Shown here: in pieces, positions 14,290-63,169 of the stretch
Layout of the letters: each line of letters opens with the position of its first letter
Position numbering within the stretch: position 1 is the stretch's first letter
NCBI GenBank assembly: GCA_964644965.1
Contig: CAZXYN010000002.1
Coordinates: 3,075-67,074, forward strand
Source: an uncultured Candidatus Saccharibacteria bacterium
GTDB taxonomy: Bacteria > Patescibacteriota > Saccharimonadia > Saccharimonadales > JACDBH01
DNA length: 64,000 bases
Direction of reading: 5' to 3'
Notes under the pieces: model-generated
Seen by the model: only the letters and a program-made list of their open reading frames with translations
Database searches by the model: none
Told to the model about the DNA's origin: nothing
Made by a program: the position numbers and the translations under genes

Positions 14290-14306
14290 TTGAAAATTTA
14301 TTTTGG
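14290..14306. repeat. 17-nt inverted repeat, arm 1 (includes the CCA end of tRNA-Met)
   Basis: ttgaaaatttattttgg is the exact reverse complement of 14382-14398. Confidence 0.9.
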
Positions 14307-14380
14307 TAGCGGCGACTGGACTTGAACCAGTGACCCCAGGCTTATGAGTCCTGTGCTCTAACCAACTGAGCTACGCCGCC
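14304..14380 (-). tRNA. tRNA with CAU anticodon: elongator Met or Ile2 (lysidine)
   Basis: 77-nt cloverleaf GGCGGCG TA GCTC AGTTGGTTA GAGC A CAGGA CTCATAA GCCTG GGGTC ACTGG TTCAAGT CCAGT CGCCGCT A CCA. C11:G24 is the elongator type. tilS is present in the window. Confidence 0.9.
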
Positions 14381-14381
14381 C

Positions 14382-14398
14382 CCAAAATAAATTTTCAA
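14382..14398. repeat. 17-nt inverted repeat, arm 2 (5' leader of tRNA-Met)
   Basis: ccaaaataaattttcaa is the reverse complement of 14290-14306. Confidence 0.9.
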
Positions 14399-14400
14399 AT

Positions 14401-14432
14401 CACTGTGCTCTAACCAACTGAGCTACCTTGCC
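14401..14432 (-). pseudogene. 5' half of a split/disrupted tRNA-like gene (acceptor 5' strand, D-arm, anticodon-stem 5' strand)
   Basis: Minus strand reads GGCAAGG TA GCTC AGTTGGTTA GAGC A CAGTG. The acceptor strand is complementary (G-U plus 6 Watson-Crick pairs) to CCTTGCT at 14046-14052. No 3' anticodon strand follows. Confidence 0.7.
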
Positions 14433-20279: not shown

Positions 20280-20510
20280 GGATTGCTCCTTGGGTTGTGA
20301 TCTTTTGATCGGGTGAGTCCCAGAGTTCGTAACTGGAGTAGAGACCACGATTATTCGTGAGCTTTATTCCAGCTACAAATAGGAAGCAACAGGGAGCAAT
20401 GCCTCTATATCTTTACAGATACAGGGGTCTGACAGAGAGCTTTTAAGTTTCGTGCTAAGGGTAAACCTTGGCACAATACACATTGTAGCATAAGCTTGAT
20501 AAAAAGTCAA

Positions 20511-20593
20511 CCTCGTAGTGAGCTTTCTAGACTCCGCCCTTGGTGGACTAGGGCTGCCCTTGAGGGCAGCCAACTCGAAAGTCTACTACGGGG
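20511..20593 (+). repeat. Family-2 structured hairpin element, copy X (83 nt)
   Basis: Basal stem CCTCGTAGTGAGCTTTC / GAAAGTCTACTACGGGG with a central G-U/A-C/G-U. Apical hairpins are CCGCC-CTT-GGTGG and GGCTGCCC-TTGA-GGGCAGCC. It is flanked by GTCAA on both sides. Confidence 0.7.
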
Positions 20594-20773
20594 TCAATAT
20601 GTTGGCTACTCTTCTATCATCTTGTGCTGGCAATCATGGCAACGGTCAGCCATAATAGTAGTGAATGAATCCCGTAAGTAAGCAACAGATCGGTACTGTA
20701 TATTATGCGCATGAATATGCGGTAAGTGTTAGTGCGTCTCATTTATGTTGGCTAGAAGGTAACTACTAACGGT

Positions 20774-22560: not shown

Positions 22561-24338
22561 ATCAGTCGCATATCCGGAACTTCTGTATTATTGCGCATAT
22601 AGATCACGGCAAATCTACGCTAGCTGATCGCTTGCTGGAACTAACCGATACCGTGCAGAAGCGAGACATGAAAGCGCAGCTGCTGGACAAGATGGACCTA
22701 GAGCGCGAAAAGGGAATTACTATCAAGCTGACCCCTGTTCAGATGGAATACAAGGGCTATCAGCTAAATCTAATCGATACACCAGGGCATGTCGACTTTA
22801 GCTACGAAGTATCGCGTAGTCTTGAGGCTTGCGAAGGCGCAATCTTAGTCGTAGATGCCAGTCAGGGCATTCAGGCGCAGACACTCGCCAATGTCTACTT
22901 GGCAATGGCAGCCGATCTGAAAATTATTCCAGTATTGAATAAGATTGATTTACCGGCGGCTGACGTGCCTAGAGTATCGGCAGAGGTTGTTAGTCTACTT
23001 GGTTGTGACGAAAGTGAAATACTCCACATCTCTGCCAAGACCGGCGAAGGTGTGCCGGCGGTGTTAGATGCTGTAGTAGAACAAATTGACTCGCCAAAAG
23101 GAAGTGGTGATACAGAAACACGGGCTCTAATATTCGATAGTTACTACGATGATTACCGAGGGGTTGTACTATATGTCCGCATTGTAGACGGTGAAATTAC
23201 CAAAGCCTCTGACATCACCATGATGGGAACACAGAGTCACGGTTTGGCTTTAGAAGTTGGAAAACTTAGTCCTGGTATGACACCAACCTCATCACTCAGA
23301 ACAGGAGAGATTGGCTACATTGTGACCAATCTCAAATCTACCCGCGAGGCAAAAGTTGGTGATACGGTGACGCTCAGTAAATCCCAAGCAGCCGAGGCAC
23401 TACCCGGCTACAAAGAAGTGAAGCCGTTTGTTTATGCCGGTATATTTCCAGAAAGCAATGAGTACTACAATGAGCTCAAAGAAGCTGTCGAAAAGCTGTC
23501 GCTCAGTGATTCAGCGTTGCAGTACGAGCCAGAAAATTCACCAGTTCTAGGATTTGGTGTGCGGGTTGGCTTCTTGGGGCTACTGCACATGGAGATTGTC
23601 CGCGAGCGTCTGGAACGTGAATACTCTTTGAGCTTAATTATTACTAATCCAAGCACCGACTATCACGTCAAACTTCTGAACGGCGAGCAAGTGGACATAA
23701 AATCTGCTAGCAGCTTGCCCGATCCTGCTAAGATTGCATCTATTGCCGAGCCGTGGATAAAAGGCGAAATCGTCGTGCCGAAGGAATATGTAGGTGCGGT
23801 CATTCAGCTAATATCGCAAAAGCGTGGACTACAAAAAGGGCTAAGCTTTGTCGATGCACAGTTGGCTCTAGTTAACTTCGAAGCACCACTAGCTAACTTA
23901 CTAACAGACTTTTATGATCAGCTCAAAAGCGTGACCAGTGGCTACGGATCGTTCAATTACGAACTGGGCGAATACCGCGAGGAAGATTTGGTGCGCGTAG
24001 ATTTCTATGTTGCCAGCGAGATTGTCGGTGCGCTTTCTGTGATGGCTCACAAAACAGAAGCTGATGCACTTGGGCGCGAGACCGTTGCCAAGCTTAAGGA
24101 AGTCATACCACGGCAGAACTTCAAGGTAGCCTTGCAGGCAGCAATCGGCGGTAGATTTATTGCCCGCGAAGATATTTCGGCTTATCGCAAGGACGTAACT
24201 AGTGGGCTCTACGGTGGTGATGTATCACGTAAGAAGAAGGTGCTAGCCAAGCAAAAGAAGGGCAAGGAACGTCTAAAACGCTTTGGCAAGGTAGATATCC
24301 CAGCCGAAGCCTTCACAGTAATGCTGAAACGAGATTAA
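22557..24338 (+). CDS. lepA: Elongation factor 4 (LepA)
   Basis: IRNFCIIAHIDHGKSTLADR G1 motif, DTPGHVDF, NKIDL, and the LepA-specific C-terminal domain. GTG start. Confidence 0.97.
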   Translation: MNQSHIRNFCIIAHIDHGKSTLADRLLELTDTVQKRDMKAQLLDKMDLEREKGITIKLTPVQMEYKGYQLNLIDTPGHVDFSYEVSRSLEACEGAILVVDASQGIQAQTLANVYLAMAADLKIIPVLNKIDLPAADVPRVSAEVVSLLGCDESEILHISAKTGEGVPAVLDAVVEQIDSPKGSGDTETRALIFDSYYDDYRGVVLYVRIVDGEITKASDITMMGTQSHGLALEVGKLSPGMTPTSSLRTGEIGYIVTNLKSTREAKVGDTVTLSKSQAAEALPGYKEVKPFVYAGIFPESNEYYNELKEAVEKLSLSDSALQYEPENSPVLGFGVRVGFLGLLHMEIVRERLEREYSLSLIITNPSTDYHVKLLNGEQVDIKSASSLPDPAKIASIAEPWIKGEIVVPKEYVGAVIQLISQKRGLQKGLSFVDAQLALVNFEAPLANLLTDFYDQLKSVTSGYGSFNYELGEYREEDLVRVDFYVASEIVGALSVMAHKTEADALGRETVAKLKEVIPRQNFKVALQAAIGGRFIAREDISAYRKDVTSGLYGGDVSRKKKVLAKQKKGKERLKRFGKVDIPAEAFTVMLKRD

Positions 24339-24345
24339 TCTCCTC

Positions 24346-24418
24346 GGGAAGAGCAGCCAGAGCACCAGGCTTTGCCTGTGCCCTGCGTGATGAGAAACCC
24401 CGAAGGGGTGTCTCATTA
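24346..24418 (+). repeat. Family-1 two-hairpin repeat, copy A
   Basis: GGGAAGAGCAGCC AGAGCACCAGG CTTTG CCTGTGCCCT GCGT GATGAGAAACCCCGAAGGGGTGTCTCATTA, beginning 7 nt after the lepA stop. Confidence 0.8.
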
Positions 24419-24424
24419 GGTCCC

Positions 24425-24457
24425 AAGCCTTCACAGTAATGCTGAAACGAGATTAAT
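24425..24457 (+). repeat. Exact 33-nt duplicate of the lepA 3' end
   Basis: aagccttcacagtaatgctgaaacgagattaat is identical to 24307-24339 (last 10 codons plus stop). The two copies flank an 85-nt segment containing repeat copy A. Confidence 0.9.
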
Positions 24458-24582
24458 ACAGGGCACATTGCGGCGATTTCAGATGTGCTCCGCGTCAACA
24501 GTATTCAGATACAGTTGACTTGCGGTGCTCCTGTAAATCACCACACTGCACTCCTGTATTACTCTCGATTTCGAGCAGACCT

Positions 24583-24635
24583 CGGAAGATCAGCCGAGTG
24601 CCCCGGCTTTACAAGAACCTCGAGGGGGGTCTCAT
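24583..24635 (+). repeat. Family-1 repeat, degenerate/truncated copy A'
   Basis: CGGAAGATCAGCC GAGTGCCCCGGCTTTACAAG AACCTCGAGGGGGGTCTCAT parallels the 5' box and terminal hairpin of copies A and C. Confidence 0.5.
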
Positions 24636-24700
24636 CCTCATCGGACTAAAACCTCCATCGTCGCCTAACCCCTGTAAAATAAAAACTTGTAAAAATCACC

Positions 24701-38264: not shown

Positions 38265-38341
38265 GGGCCCATAGCTCAGCCGGTTAGAGCATCTGCCTTT
38301 TAAGCAGAGTGTCGTGGGTTCGAGTCCCACTGGGCCCTCCA
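38265..38341 (+). tRNA. tRNA-Lys (anticodon UUU)
   Basis: GGGCCCA TA GCTC AGCCGGTTA GAGC A TCTGC CTTTTAA GCAGA GTGTC GTGGG TTCGAGT CCCAC TGGGCCC T CCA. Confidence 0.95.
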
Positions 38342-38350
38342 TACAAAATG

Positions 38351-38373
38351 CCTCAGCAAAGCTGGGGCTTTTT
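38351..38373 (+). terminator. Intrinsic terminator after tRNA-Lys
   Basis: CCTCAGC-AAA-GCTGGGG followed by CTTTTT. Confidence 0.7.
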
Positions 38374-38497: not shown

Positions 38498-38515
38498 GTC
38501 CCACTGGGCCCTCCA
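38498..38515 (+). repeat. Direct repeat of the last 18 nt of tRNA-Lys (att-like)
   Basis: gtcccactgggccctcca is identical to 38324-38341. Confidence 0.85.
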
Positions 38516-38524
38516 AATTCAGTA

Positions 38525-38544
38525 CCCCTCGAAAGAGGGGTTTT
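38525..38544 (+). terminator. Terminator-like hairpin
   Basis: CCCCTC-GAAA-GAGGGG followed by TTTT. Confidence 0.6.
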
Positions 38545-52310: not shown

Positions 52311-54119
52311 TTAGTCCTCGCTCGTGGCTGTTACGCGCAGTATTTCTTCGATTGTGGACTGGCCACGGAGCGCTTTGATAAATCCATCTAACTGCATGGT
52401 GACCATGCCTTCCTTGATCGCTTGCTGGTTAATGACTTCTGATGTTGAGTTACTAACAATTAGCTTCTGGACAGCGTCTGAATTATGGAGAACTTCGTAT
52501 ATACCGATTCTACCTTTGTAACCGGTCTTATTACAGGCCGGACAGCCACCGGCATGAGCCTTCCAGATACGGTTAATTTTGGTTTCTGTTGTACTGAGCG
52601 AATCACTGGATTGCTTACCTTGATTACTCTTGCCAATACCACCTTCTAGAGCCTTTTGTTCGAGCCCGTGAAGGTATTTCATCATCGGGGTGTCAATATG
52701 AAATGTTTCGGTGATGCGTTTGAGCGTTGGCGCGTCTGGCTCTACTTCTTCGCGGCATTCCGTACAAAGTCTTCGAATCAGCCGTTGGCCAACAACAGCA
52801 CGGACAGTACTGGCAATTAAAAACGGTTCGATACCCATATCGAGCAGACGCGGCAGGCAGGTTGCAGCGTTGTTGGTATGTAGCGTGCTGAATACAAGGT
52901 GACCCGTCAGTGCCGCTTGGACACCAAGACTAGCAGTTTCGCCATCACGAATCTCACCGACCATAATGACATTTGGATCCTGACGCAGCAGGGCTCGCAG
53001 ACCGTTGACGAATGTCATGCCGGCAACAGGGTTAACCTGAGTCTGGTTGGTACCGGGTACCCGGTATTCCACTGGGTCTTCTACTGTAGAAATGTTCACG
53101 GTCGGACTGTTTATCATCGATAGAACACTGAACAAGCTAGTACTCTTACCAGAGCCGGTTGGACCAGTAACTAGTACCATGCCGTGCGGCTGAACAATCG
53201 CGTCCTTGATATCGTTTAGCGATTTGCCCCAGTAACCAAGCTCCTCTAGAGTCAGCGCCTTACTGGATTCATTCAAAATACGCATGACGACCTTTTCGCC
53301 ATCGACAATAGGTAGTGTCGAGACACGCAGAGCATAAATAGCACCATTGGCAGAAATCTTGAATCTTCCATCCTGTGGAGCGCGGCGTTCATCAATCTTT
53401 AGGTTACTAAGGATTTTGATACGAGACACTAGTGCAGACATGACTTTCTTGGGTAACTTGTTGGTCTCCTTTAGAATACCGTCAATACGATAGCGTACAG
53501 ATACAAAGTTCTCGCGCGGCTCGATATGAATATCACTAGCACCAGCTTTGACAGCGTATTCAATCAATAAGTTTACGGTCTGGGCAATCGGTGAATCCTC
53601 GGCCACATCTTCTTCTGAAACATTTTCATCGATGTCTTCGGCCAGTTCTTCTGGTGTCATGACTTTTGTTAGCTCGGTGCCGATTTCGCCTCGATATTGG
53701 TCTAGGCAGGCGGCAATGTTTTGCTTGGTCGCCATGGCTACCCGGATGTCCTCGCCGAGCTGTTTCTTGAGGAAGTTTACGGCCTCAACATCATCAGGGT
53801 TTTCGGTGGCAAGGAGCTTAGCACCTGTCTCGTCAACACCGTACAGTACGACATTGTACTGGTTGGCAATGCGCTCTGGAATGAGCTTAAGAATCTCTAG
53901 TTTGATAGCCTTTGGATCGAGCTCTACAAATGGAACTTCGATTTCATCGGCATACAATTTCGTCAGATCTTTTTCGCTGACCACATTTGATTTGATGACA
54001 ATGTCTTGGAGCGCAGCTTTAGCATTGCCCGATTGTTCTCGAACTGTGGCCAATTGTTCTTCAGTTGCCTTGCCACCTTTTATCAGCAACTCTTTTACTA
54101 ATGCATCAGAAATACGCAT
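52311..54119 (-). CDS. pilB: Type IV pilus extension ATPase PilB (GspE family)
   Basis: GPTGSGKST Walker A, Asp box, IMVGEIRD Walker B, His box, and tetracysteine CTEC...CPAC. Confidence 0.95.
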   Translation of the reverse strand: MRISDALVKELLIKGGKATEEQLATVREQSGNAKAALQDIVIKSNVVSEKDLTKLYADEIEVPFVELDPKAIKLEILKLIPERIANQYNVVLYGVDETGAKLLATENPDDVEAVNFLKKQLGEDIRVAMATKQNIAACLDQYRGEIGTELTKVMTPEELAEDIDENVSEEDVAEDSPIAQTVNLLIEYAVKAGASDIHIEPRENFVSVRYRIDGILKETNKLPKKVMSALVSRIKILSNLKIDERRAPQDGRFKISANGAIYALRVSTLPIVDGEKVVMRILNESSKALTLEELGYWGKSLNDIKDAIVQPHGMVLVTGPTGSGKSTSLFSVLSMINSPTVNISTVEDPVEYRVPGTNQTQVNPVAGMTFVNGLRALLRQDPNVIMVGEIRDGETASLGVQAALTGHLVFSTLHTNNAATCLPRLLDMGIEPFLIASTVRAVVGQRLIRRLCTECREEVEPDAPTLKRITETFHIDTPMMKYLHGLEQKALEGGIGKSNQGKQSSDSLSTTETKINRIWKAHAGGCPACNKTGYKGRIGIYEVLHNSDAVQKLIVSNSTSEVINQQAIKEGMVTMQLDGFIKALRGQSTIEEILRVTATSED

Positions 54120-54223
54120 ATTATTAACGGTTAGTATACCTTAAAAAGCGTAAGCAATATACAGCCACTACAAAAAACTTGACGGCCTTGTATTGGCGCG
54201 GTAAGCTATCGTGTTCATGCTTG

Positions 54224-54307
54224 CCCGGAAGTAGATCTTCGTGCGGCTCGTCATGGACGAGCCAGGCATCCGCTTAGAGCAGATGCACACGAAGGCTCAC
54301 TTCCGGG
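54224..54307 (-). repeat. Family-2 structured hairpin element, copy Y1 (inverted relative to Y2)
   Basis: Arms are CCCGGAAGTAGATCTTCGTG / CACGAAGGCTCACTTCCGGG. The apical region contains two 8-bp hairpins (GGCTCGTC.GACGAGCC and GCATCCGC.GCAGATGC on the plus strand). Confidence 0.7.
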
Positions 54308-54311
54308 CTTG

Positions 54312-54396
54312 CCCAGTAGTGAGCTTTCGTGAACATTTTACAAGGTAAAATGTCTGGTCTCGCTAAGGCGATACCGCACGAAAGTCTACTACTGGG
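54312..54396 (+). repeat. Family-2 structured hairpin element, copy Y2
   Basis: Arms are CCCAGTAGTGAGCTTTCGTG / CACGAAAGTCTACTACTGGG. Apical hairpins are ACATTTTAC-AAG-GTAAAATGT and GGTCTCGC-TAAG-GCGATACC. Confidence 0.7.
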
Positions 54397-54491
54397 CTTG
54401 CACAGACAATTGGAACTCCAATGCGGCTATGCTTGCACTAGTCAAACCAATACAATATAAAGTAAGTACAAAGATAAGAGAGGGAAATACG

Positions 54492-55529
54492 ATGGCAAAA
54501 GCACAGTCTGACACACCAAAAAAAGAATTAGCACCAAAAGAGGTAAAAGAAGATGGCAAGACCAAAGCATTAGGTTTAGCTGTCGATCATATCGAAAAAC
54601 AGTTCGGCAAGGGCACAATCATGCGCCTCGGTGAGAGCACGCACCAGAATGTTGAATGTTACCCAACCGGCAGCGTCTCTCTAGACCTCGCCCTTGGCGG
54701 CGGCATTCCAAAAGGCCGTATTATAGAAGTATACGGGCCAGAAAGCTCTGGTAAGACAACCCTCACTCTCCACGCAATTGCAGAGGTTCAGAGAGCAGGC
54801 GGTGTGGCGGCATTTATCGATGCCGAGCACGCACTCGATCCGCAGTACGCTCAGCGAATCGGTGTAAACCTAGACAATCTACTGGTATCTCAGCCAGACA
54901 ACGGCGAGCAGGCACTAGAGATTGTCGAATCACTGGTACGCAGTAATGCAGTTGACCTGATTGTTGTCGACTCTGTTGCGGCGCTCGTACCACAGGCGGA
55001 AATCGAAGGCGATATGGGTGACAGCCATATGGGTCTGCAGGCTCGTCTGATGAGCCAAGCGCTACGCAAGCTGACGGCAATTATTTCTAAGTCTAAGAGC
55101 ACAGTGATTTTCATCAATCAGCTTCGCATGAAGATCGGCGTTATGTTTGGCAACCCAGAGACAACCACTGGTGGTAACGCGCTCAAATTCTACGCTAGCC
55201 TGCGTATGGACATCCGCCGTACATCACAGATCAAACAGGGTGACCAAGTAATCGGCAACCGCACCCGGGTAAAGGTGGTCAAGAACAAAATCGCACCGCC
55301 ATTCCGCGAGGCCGAGTTTGACATCATGTACAACGAAGGTATTAGCCGCGAGGGCGATGTGCTCGACCTAGCTGTAAATAAAGAGATTGTCGAAAAAGCT
55401 GGCGCCTGGTTCAGCTACGAAGGCGAAAAAATAGGGCAGGGACGTGAGGCATCCAAGTCTTATCTGAAAGAAAATCCAAAAGTCCTCGAAAAAATAGCCA
55501 AGCAAGTCATGGAAGCCAACAAGGTTTAA
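54492..55529 (+). CDS. recA: Recombinase RecA
   Basis: [28 protein letters not shown], and [28 protein letters not shown]. The start is set at MAKAQ with a GAGAGGGA RBS. Confidence 0.97.
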
Positions 55530-55533
55530 ACGC

Positions 55534-55884
55534 ATGCAAGGTCCCAATGAACGTTTCTATAACTGGATGAAAGAAGAAGACGAACTAAAACTTCGCCAGT
55601 CAATTGAAGCATCCAGTAGGGAACAGGCTAAATTTATGGGAGATATATTTAAATACCTGTCAATGGTTTCAGGGGCTTTATCTGTTAACATGCTTGTTTT
55701 AGCTAAACAAGCCGATTTCGATTATAGTTTGGGCGAAACTTCGGTCGTTGAACTGGCAACCCAGAGTCCCGGCGGCTGCCTGGCTTTAGGGTCTTTTGCC
55801 GTAACATCTGCTTTTTTTGTGGAGGGCTTGTCTTTGTATCGCCAAGCACGCAATCGAGAAGCTGAACTTGGCACAGTGGAGTAG
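55534..55884 (+). CDS. Hypothetical membrane protein
   Basis: Two hydrophobic segments and no motif recognised. Confidence 0.45.
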   Translation: MQGPNERFYNWMKEEDELKLRQSIEASSREQAKFMGDIFKYLSMVSGALSVNMLVLAKQADFDYSLGETSVVELATQSPGGCLALGSFAVTSAFFVEGLSLYRQARNREAELGTVE

Positions 55885-55893
55885 AATTTCTCT

Positions 55894-56346
55894 ATGACGG
55901 CAACGAATCACGGGCTAGCAGGGGCGGCAATTGCGATTGTGCTACAAAAGCACCCAGCCATCGCTATTGCCATGTCTCCATTCAGCCACTTTTTGCTAGA
56001 TATGATTCCGCATTATGCAGACAACAATCTAGGCATAAAAGATCGCAAGTTTGTTCGCAATTTGTTTATAGACATGACACTAGCAGTAGCGTCCACGCTA
56101 GCTGTAGCGTGGTTTTGGCCAGATATAGCGCTACTGGTAGTGGCATGTGCATTCCTAGCGGCAAGCCCTGATCTGATGTGGCTGTATTATAGATATCTCA
56201 AACCAACCAAACCAAAGGACTGGAATTGGCTTGCCAGATTTCATAGCCGTATCCAGTGGTCAGAGACCAAACCTGGCATCATCACCGAAGTCCTCTGGTT
56301 CGCCATCCTCTTCCCATCCCTCATCCTAATAAGCACAGGCTCCTAG
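55894..56346 (+). CDS. YdjM/DUF457-like membrane-bound metal-dependent hydrolase
   Basis: TNHGLAGAAIAI, HFLLDMIPH, and 4 TM segments. This family often belongs to DNA-damage regulons. Confidence 0.55.
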   Translation: MTATNHGLAGAAIAIVLQKHPAIAIAMSPFSHFLLDMIPHYADNNLGIKDRKFVRNLFIDMTLAVASTLAVAWFWPDIALLVVACAFLAASPDLMWLYYRYLKPTKPKDWNWLARFHSRIQWSETKPGIITEVLWFAILFPSLILISTGS

Positions 56347-62908: not shown

Positions 62909-62980
62909 GGGAAGAGCAGCCAGACAAAATGTATTCCATTTTGCCTACGCGATGAGAAACCCCGAAGGGGTGTCTCATTA
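62909..62980 (+). repeat. Family-1 two-hairpin repeat, copy C
   Basis: GGGAAGAGCAGCC AGACAAAATG TATTC CATTTTGCCT ACGC GATGAGAAACCCCGAAGGGGTGTCTCATTA. It abuts the stop codon of the convergent small ORF. Confidence 0.8.
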
Positions 62981-63169
62981 CTAAAGCTCGCTCTTGCCAC
63001 GAAAACCAAAACCAGCTATGACTATGCTTGCGATCATATTGACGATCACAATGCTGACTAGCGAAAGCTCTGGGTCAATTGCCAGCAGCGCTGCGCTACC
63101 CAACCATATAATGCCGATGGCACCAGCTGTGTACGGGTATTTGATGAACAGTACAAATTCCTTAAGCAT
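62981..63169 (-). CDS. 62-aa two-TM small membrane protein
   Basis: Two hydrophobic helices. Its start overlaps the upstream ABC1-kinase gene end. Confidence 0.5.
   Translation of the reverse strand: MLKEFVLFIKYPYTAGAIGIIWLGSAALLAIDPELSLVSIVIVNMIASIVIAGFGFRGKSEL

Follow-up and report, generated by a model that had tools for sequence, protein, structure and literature searches.

Hairpin elements beside recA in a Saccharibacteria genome as probable members of an undescribed family of non-autonomous transposons with an excess at promoter -35 boxes

Small fold-back elements have been described from several bacterial lineages, among them Correia/NEMIS in Neisseria, ERIC/IRU in enterobacteria, RUP and BOX in Streptococcus pneumoniae, and Nezha in cyanobacteria. 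These miniature inverted-repeat transposable elements (MITEs) measure 70-160 nt, are non-coding, carry terminal inverted repeats, and form long hairpins; they are mainly intergenic, occur in many copies, are present or absent at orthologous sites, and often lie near promoters or gene ends. We know of no transposase for several of them. In this work, we have analyzed three hairpin elements, Y1, Y2, and X, in a 64,000-nt stretch of contig CAZXYN010000002.1 from an uncultured Candidatus Saccharibacteria bacterium (the whole stretch is referred to here as the window). Y1 and Y2 lie in tandem between pilB and recA, and X lies beside murJ. Their family shares all of the properties listed above, and we conclude that the three elements are most probably copies of one MITE, a DNA transposon that is non-autonomous and specific to the Saccharibacteria (TM7, Patescibacteria). 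The family differs from the described MITEs in having no sequence similarity to them, in its host, which belongs to the Patescibacteria or candidate phyla radiation (CPR), and in its duplicated target, a 4-bp YWWR sequence as opposed to the TA of Correia and RUP. Three further traits set it apart: an interior that always yields two hairpins in spite of being unrelated from copy to copy, ends that differ invariably at three bases, and a measured excess of insertions at promoter -35 boxes. None of the literature searched gives the arm sequences or describes such repeats or MITEs in Saccharibacteria, so the family is undescribed so far, while the kind of element is already known.

The case for transposition begins with the sequences that border the three copies. 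The features concerned are listed below, with the strand of an element being that of its sense orientation, in which the GAG-bearing arm comes first:

20507-20510, no strand: TCAA, left target-site duplication of X (from the sequence)
20511-20593, plus strand: X, short-form element of 83 nt (from sequence, fold, and covariance model)
20594-20597, no strand: TCAA, right target-site duplication of X (from the sequence)
54220-54223, no strand: CTTG, left target-site duplication of Y1 (from the sequence, with a single CTTG in gttcATGCTTGCA of the relatives L115, L117, and L118)
54224-54307, minus strand: Y1, short-form element of 84 nt with arms of the GAGCC/GATCT sub-family (from sequence, fold, and covariance model)
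54308-54311, no strand: CTTG common to Y1, as its right duplication, and Y2, as its left duplication (from the sequence and relatives)
54312-54396, plus strand: Y2, short-form element of 85 nt with consensus arms CCCAGTAGTGAGCTTTCG ... CGAAAGTCTACTACTGGG (from sequence, fold, and covariance model)
54397-54400, no strand: CTTG, right target-site duplication of Y2 (the next bases are cacag, as in the empty site of L115)
54401-54431, no strand: 31-nt piece between the third CTTG and a fourth (54432-54435), absent from relatives by sequence comparison and not significantly structured (z -0.9)

The RecA encoded in the window is 84-95% identical to many metagenomic RecA proteins, of which the named ones belong to Candidatus Saccharibacteria or Saccharimonadales. 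Compared for presence or absence, as a preliminary description of the window had envisaged, the pilB-recA spacers of three close relatives (L115, L117, and L118, with RecA 92-95% identical) prove to be empty sites: they read gttcATGCTTGCA, with one CTTG and no element, where the window reads gttcatgCTTG[Y1]CTTG[Y2]CTTGcacag. A single CTTG has therefore received two insertions, Y1 and Y2, each duplicating it, and the second entered the CTTG that the first had duplicated. The preliminary description had treated an 8-nt direct repeat, ATGCTTGC (54217-54224 and 54429-54436), as the duplication of the whole Y1+Y2 block. The repeat exists, because 31 extra bases and then a fourth CTTG follow Y2, but the sites of the relatives make the duplication proper to these elements the 4-bp CTTG of each unit. 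It had also bordered Y1 and Y2 with CTTG, which stands, as does the importance of such short repeats, and X with GTCAA, which has to be shortened to TCAA. As for the 31-nt piece itself, another insertion could have left it behind as a remnant, or ATGCTTGCAC could have been duplicated locally.

The same site is occupied differently in another Saccharibacteria assembly (GCA_964641015.1, locus L116, 3345-3445), where an unrelated element of ~100 nt with the ends TCCCGTTAT...ATAACGGGA sits in the pilB-recA CTTG. This insert is a different MITE, and the CTTG is a hot spot; the CCCG/CGGG ends common to the insert and to our family suggest a related transposase. Several metagenome assemblies of the organism end near Y1 and Y2, one of them with a contig end ~460 nt upstream of pilB (L198 1-461; also L002), so the repeat may break short-read assemblies.

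Beyond the window, the family was collected in two ways. One genome per species was scanned with the pattern AGTGAGCNTTC N{35,65} GAANNTCTACT, which gave at least 112 loci, true matches being those with CCC...GGG ends and a full stem; a metagenome scan conditioned on one arm and the adjoining block uncovered, in addition, a long size class. With duplicates removed, the two scans recovered at least 141 non-redundant copies. Among the matches listed, copies occur in at least 33 species-level assemblies and on many metagenome contigs, and the carrier assemblies are labelled Saccharibacteria, Saccharimonadales, or Patescibacteria, except for a few unclassified 'bacterium' metagenome-assembled genomes (MAGs) and one MAG labelled Binatia. 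Genome-scan matches in Pelagibacteraceae and other non-Patescibacteria were set aside as chance, since they lie inside genes and have neither the CCC...GGG ends nor the stem. Copy number can be considerable: the 776-kb contig JBEKOJ010000001.1 carries at least 12 copies (11 paired copies plus a nested outer long form).

The duplication seen at recA recurs across this collection. An exact 4-bp direct repeat flanks 76 of the 141 copies, against ~7 expected by permutation, and the excess is found in the short form (41/78, permuted-flank mean 3.4) and in the long form (35/63, mean 3.7) alike; when flanks were permuted among copies, never more than 10 exact repeats arose in 1000 permutations. The duplicated tetramers vary, with CTTG/CAAG, TAAA, TCAA/TTGA, CTTA, CATA, and others represented; the repeat thus does not belong to the element and is a true duplication. 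The target consensus is YWWR between G and C (G/YWWR/C), and the duplication measures 5 bp in seven cases. A short form nested inside a long form (L076), long forms whose right arm is decayed or deleted (L185, L182), and an arms-only remnant of 38 nt (L072) are further signs of mobility and decay. Copies within one genome have arms that are 87% identical and interiors that are essentially unrelated (45% identity versus 39% for shuffled interiors). The divergence of orthologous pairs, considered as a sign of in-place selection, was uninformative, as the pairs come from nearly identical strains with mosaic flanks.

Three copies adjoin tRNA genes (L009 3177-3260, L084 277-354, and L102 5340-5419), with the terminal GGG of the element supplying the first bases of the tRNA (GGGCCCATAGCTCAG...). 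One contig carries both L084 and L102, which are separated by 40 kb and have 25 nt of their upstream flanks in common; they are thus paralogues, which arose when the element and its tRNA segment were duplicated together. Three IMG/VR contigs classed as viral (L193, L194, and L195) each carry a short-form element; no match to the element was found in the phage and plasmid collections searched.

Two size classes make up the family, a short form of 71-93 nt and a long form of 154-160 nt (~156 nt), and no open reading frame (ORF) fits inside either. The terminal inverted repeats are 18-20 bp long and imperfect, the arms matching at 15 of 18 positions. One end reads CCCNGTAGT-GAG-CTTTCG and the other CGAAAG-TCT-ACTACNGGG, which is the same sequence with AGA, and a sub-family that includes Y1 has GAGCC...GATCT instead. 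In 143 of 143 arm pairs, GAG on one arm is accompanied by AGA on its partner, and pairing of the two gives a G.U/A.C/G.U triplet. This constancy is not an ascertainment artefact, since ~70 of the long-form partner arms lay outside the search pattern. Around the invariant core of the arms, AGTGAGCTTTC/GAAAGTCTACT, the pairs covary, both toward the ends (CCCAG/CTGGG, CCCGG/CCGGG, and CCCCG/CGGGG; GTAG/CTAC, GCAG/CTGC, and GAAG/CTTC) and toward the interior (CGAG/CTCG, CGCG/CGCG, CGTG/CACG, CGAT/ATCG, and CCAG/CTGG). An alignment of 50 short forms has changes in both partners at 21 of 32 pairs; the covariation score of 0.286 compares with 0.109 for shuffles, none of 500 reaching the observed value, and with 0.05-0.10 for controls in which the partner was slid.

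The interior keeps its pairing as well. A three-way-junction fold is found in 68 of 74 short forms, and short-form interiors taken alone fold better than their shuffles, with a median z of -3.2. The short sub-family has interiors of either orientation with respect to the arm triplet (for example, L016 versus L024 and L036). The long form adds four blocks, ATTATTCGAC, TCAGCTCGTC, GTCGAATAA, and GACGAGCTGA, in that order. Blocks 2 and 4 form a helix stacked on the basal stem that is 97% paired, with 7 of 10 pairs covarying, and blocks 1 and 3 are 95.5% complementary; as the four blocks interleave, either a pseudoknot or a set of alternative pairings results. The short form appears to derive from the long one by deletion, with each pair of blocks reduced to a small hairpin.

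The three copies in the window conform to this anatomy. Each has a basal stem of ~20 bp with the G.U/A.C/G.U triplet, followed by two apical hairpins. Pairwise identity is 75-89% in the arms and 43-59% in the interiors, where shuffled interiors give ~39%. Folded as RNA, the sense strand reaches -54.2 kcal/mol in Y1 (z -9.7), -44.1 kcal/mol in Y2 (z -8.1), and -45.8 kcal/mol in X (z -5.1); folded as DNA, the three give z-scores from -3.9 to -10.0, the latter for Y1, and the two strands fold about equally well. A covariance model of family members, run over the 64-kb window, scores Y2 at 77.3, Y1 at 75.5, and X at 66.1 bits, values that are not independent evidence because all three copies are in the training set. 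It returns no fourth copy, and the arm motifs occur at Y1, Y2, and X only, which leaves three copies in this window. Y1 and Y2 are flanked by PilB (T2SSE) and PilC at one end and by RecA and RecX at the other, while X stands between FtsH with a minus-strand 184-aa ORF of unknown function and MurJ (FtsH and MurJ by Pfam). Much of the preliminary description is thus upheld: the coordinates of the copies by the sequence and the covariance-model search, the fixed non-Watson-Crick triplet of the basal stem by its presence in all three, the unrelated apical sequence with preserved pairing by interiors near shuffle identity and by the prevalence of the three-way junction in the family, the compensatory stem changes by the 50 aligned members, and the proximity to pilB, recA, and murJ as it had been given.

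Where the elements land was studied on 75 empty sites rebuilt from copies with exact duplications. Promoters were defined as sigma-70-like sequences with both hexamers, 16-18-nt spacing, and at most three mismatches, and intergenic sites with the same tetramers served as controls. The duplication overlaps the -35 hexamer in 15 of the 75 sites, in registers 0 to -2, where 2.56 are expected (Poisson p ~1e-7); the 15 include two duplicates of orthologous sites. None of the 75 overlaps the -10 box under the full-promoter criteria, though several TATA-type duplications lie in TATAAT. The element end that faces the promoter is the GAG arm in eight cases and the AGA arm in five. Copies are mostly intergenic and, relative to intergenic DNA of the same loci, favor spacers between divergent genes (29 versus 19 expected) over those between convergent genes (7 versus 13 expected; p = 0.02).

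X belongs to the 15 cases, its left TCAA forming the TTGA of a -35-like TTGACT on the minus strand (20510-20505) that is followed, after 17 nt, by TACAAT (20487-20482). Beside Y2, one promoter is predicted:

54433-54461, plus strand: predicted recA promoter, TTGCAC (54433-54438), 17 nt, TATAAA (54456-54461) (from consensus only; not listed by a simple scan)

In relatives, the CTTG targeted by the elements overlaps the predicted -35 box of recA (TTGCAx, 18 nt, TATAAC or TATAAA). Since the duplication rebuilds the hexamer, insertion of an element immediately upstream need not destroy the promoter. The upstream region of fpg, which encodes formamidopyrimidine-DNA glycosylase, is another such place, with an element 19-33 nt upstream of the gene in two species, a long form in L010 (2806-2962) and a short form with an unrelated interior in L088 (1197-1281); this is recurrent use of the same promoter region.

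These placements raise the question of whether the host has recruited former MITEs as DNA elements close to promoters, where they could adopt a cruciform or three-way structure, offer a binding site, block read-through, or serve as a modulator sensitive to supercoiling. Such a role would suit the exact coincidence with -35 hexamers and the intact box that the element abuts, the enrichment between divergent and depletion between convergent genes, the repeated use of the pilB-recA spacer and the fpg upstream region across species, and arms that are invariant in at least 33 species. It would not be expected to leave the promoter-facing end unfixed, and close relatives that lack elements at recA show that a copy is not needed there. 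Moreover, 80% of sites lie off any predicted -35 box, and a target preference together with the survival of harmless insertions can produce the enrichment. We regard host take-over as unlikely.

The covariation raises a second alternative, namely that the elements are a structured non-coding RNA family, a three-way junction with a pseudoknotted long form, which has a host function such as mRNA stabilization, processing, or regulation in untranslated regions and is dispersed like a repeat. Strong covariation in every helix is what such a family would display; so is the interleaving of the long-form helices (columns 22-30 with 112-120 and 48-58 with 142-151), which follows pseudoknot order, and only one strand gains two G.U pairs from the fixed triplet. 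Transcription of many copies is probable, as they are located within tens of bases of gene ends. The sense strand also folds ~2.9 kcal/mol better as RNA, in 60 of 78 short and 45 of 63 long copies, but this advantage is due to the triplet itself, and with DNA parameters the two strands are equivalent. Outside the triplet, G.U pairs are about as frequent on the sense as on the antisense strand (80 versus 57 in short forms and 246 versus 230 in long forms, neither difference significant), and of the copies between co-directional genes, 30 share the strand of the genes and 20 are opposed to it (p = 0.2). With neither an orientation bias nor a wobble strand bias outside the triplet, the pairing looks to be maintained at the DNA level. 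The free orientation of the interior in the short sub-family, the decayed copies, and the arrival by transposition that target duplications and empty sites attest likewise speak against an RNA. Rfam 15 recognizes three tRNAs only in the window at the gathering threshold, nothing meaningful in the element region at E-values up to 10, and nothing in the long form. An RNA family is therefore improbable, and the suggestion in the preliminary description that the structure reflects a selected RNA in place of a plain MITE is unsupported: 4-bp duplications, empty sites, nested and decayed copies, and the lack of orientation or wobble bias all run counter to it.

A third alternative relates the elements to REP/REPIN or IS200/IS605-derived palindromes, which a tyrosine HUH transposase (RAYT or TnpA) mobilizes in the form of single-stranded DNA hairpins. 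HUH enzymes recognize imperfect hairpins with mismatched bases, and the imperfect stem with its invariant mismatch triplet resembles such irregular hairpins, as its variable terminal structure resembles that of attC sites. The likeness extends to short length, intergenic location, pairing conserved more than sequence, and GTAG in the arms, this being the REP head motif. REP/REPIN and IS200/IS605 elements, however, generate no target-site duplication, inserting beside one fixed tetra- or pentanucleotide, and lack terminal inverted repeats of this kind. Our family has true terminal inverted repeats and a variable 4-bp sequence that is duplicated on both sides and single in the empty site, and its local orientation is not uniform, Y1 and Y2 being opposed, all of which renders this alternative very improbable. 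Integron attC sites share a conserved stem with fixed one-strand irregularities and a variable, possibly branched tip, and were rejected, as the arms lack the R''/R' cores (RYYYAAC / GTTRRRY), there are no cassette arrays, both orientations occur, and target duplications flank the elements; an intrinsic (Rho-independent) terminator was rejected as well, since 53900-54700 holds no terminator-like site and the elements are followed by a YWWR duplication and not a T run.

The reading as a non-autonomous transposon implies an enzyme supplied in trans. A 4-bp staggered duplication is a sign of a DDE-type transposase, and members of the IS1380 family have CC ends and duplications of 4-5 bp. Among the DDE transposases, piggyBac is the eukaryotic counterpart of the bacterial IS1380 family (PMC5718144); it duplicates a 4-bp TTAA, with the variants TAAA, TCAA, and CTAA, and its repeats start with CCCTT or CCCAT (PMC10813416). 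Our family resembles IS1380/piggyBac in its CCCNG...CNGGG ends, in its A/T-centred 4-bp duplication (PMC10813416), and in having unequal ends. The likeness is one of end and duplication features alone; the repeats match neither those of ISEcp1 nor those of piggyBac, and the target is less strict than TTAA. We infer from the CCC...GGG ends and the duplication that the cognate enzyme may be IS1380/piggyBac-like.

Taken together with the landing sites, this suggests a sequence of steps by which the copies may have arisen:

(i) A transposase supplied in trans would bind the invariant ends and cut the target with a 4-nt stagger at G/YWWR/C, leaving the element flanked by a 4-bp duplication.

(ii) Y1 and Y2 would have been inserted successively into one CTTG that is part of the recA -35 box, and X would have landed on the TTGA of another -35-like box. 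In each case, the restored hexamer would keep the promoter, with the element directly upstream.

(iii) The ends would stay conserved because only copies with intact ends keep moving, while the interior would drift freely as long as it remains self-complementary. Pairing may be kept through a fold-back (hairpin) DNA state that helps transposition, or through template-switch correction between the palindrome halves, which is a known mutational process.

(iv) The three-base difference between the ends is most simply an inherited left/right difference of the parent transposon, kept in the transposase-binding core.

Within this account, the data demonstrate mobility, the target duplication, the existence of the family, the covariation, and the -35 enrichment, and the type of enzyme and the reason for which pairing is kept are inferences. 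Several observations weigh against this account or narrow it, beginning with the search for the enzyme. Autonomous elements were sought as arm pairs more than 400 nt apart and as unpaired arms. In 1.37 Mb of loci, no gene is bracketed by element ends (CCCNGTAGTGAGC... and ...GTCTACTACNGGG), and no unpaired intact arm lies away from contig ends. Arm 'pairs' spaced 3.5 kb apart in L142 and L181 were rejected as autonomous elements, each consisting of two separate long forms that flank ordinary genes. ABC ATPases, Fpg, TruB, and PilB-like proteins make up the recurrent proteins of the loci, with no transposase among them; no DDE/DDD transposase of the IS1380/piggyBac family was seen in the loci examined, and in the window, ORFs of at least 280 aa belong to housekeeping or pilus families or have no transposase-like Pfam match. 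The preliminary description had allowed for a match to a known MITE or REP family with its transposase elsewhere in the genome, and what was found is a family without counterpart in the literature searched and no transposase in the loci and ORFs examined. The constancy of the GAG/AGA difference, which extends to partner arms on which the search was not conditioned, is the least explained trait of the family. Pairing that covaries copy by copy, including in the 10-bp helix of the long form, is a further difficulty, since protein-binding sites alone would not produce it. Finally, the -35 excess is limited in what it can tell us: it could have its source in targeting, in a preference for a longer sequence such as TTGAC, or in the survival of harmless insertions.

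These same traits invite a bolder version of the transposon reading, in which the transposase reads folded DNA, the triple-wobble stem together with the three-way junction or pseudoknot, and is directed to -35 boxes, for example via melted or RNA-polymerase-bound DNA. The elements would then act as a reversible promoter-proximal switch in ultra-small CPR genomes, moved by a piggyBac/IS1380 relative with precise excision. The covariation, the end asymmetry, the interleaved long-form helices, and the 6-fold -35 excess are compatible with a structure-reading transposase, and none of them proves it; we consider this version doubtful.

The window contains further repeats and genes that lie apart from the family. 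A second non-coding repeat family (24300-24700 and 62920-62985) includes a 37-nt hairpin, CCTGCGTGATGAGAAACCCCGAAGGGGTGTCTCATTA, at 24382-24418 that is 95% identical at 62944-62980, with GGGAAGAGCAGCCAGA standing 26-40 nt upstream of both copies; it has no Rfam match at the gathering threshold. In the same region, 24304-24339 is repeated at 24422-24457 with 97% identity. The minus-strand tRNA gene at 14307-14380 has a 24-nt interior segment (14351-14374) that is exactly repeated at 14403-14426, and it is bracketed by 25-nt inverted arms (14290-14314 / 14374-14398); these repeats could be a trace of integration or duplication. The tRNA at 38265-38338 has a second copy of its 3' end (GTCCCACTGGGCCCTCCA) 174 nt downstream (38324-38366 and 38498-38540), with a terminator-like hairpin after each copy, an arrangement that resembles an attachment-site duplication or a tRNA remnant. 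Between recA and recX, two ORFs of 116 and 150 aa (55534-56346) have no Pfam match and keep their position in relatives.

Genomes of Saccharibacteria and other CPR bacteria measure ~0.8-1 Mb and are usually described as poor in mobile DNA. Here, dozens of species are found to carry a MITE family at a dozen or more copies per genome, and the difference in site occupancy between close genomes shows that transposition is ongoing in these epibionts. The family also illustrates that a conserved stem with a variable but paired tip can come from a transposon without any RNA function. In practice, it provides a marker for strain typing and for assembly breaks, its invariant ends offer a specific bait for the unknown transposase, and the ends may be usable as a tool in bacteria that have only recently become genetically tractable (PMC10633639). 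The combination of a CPR host, two size classes, a covarying interior, end asymmetry, and a -35 excess leaves a modest chance of a mechanistically new transposase or of a host role. The preference for -35 boxes, including that of recA near type IV pilus and competence genes, suggests that the elements may alter the expression of their neighbors.

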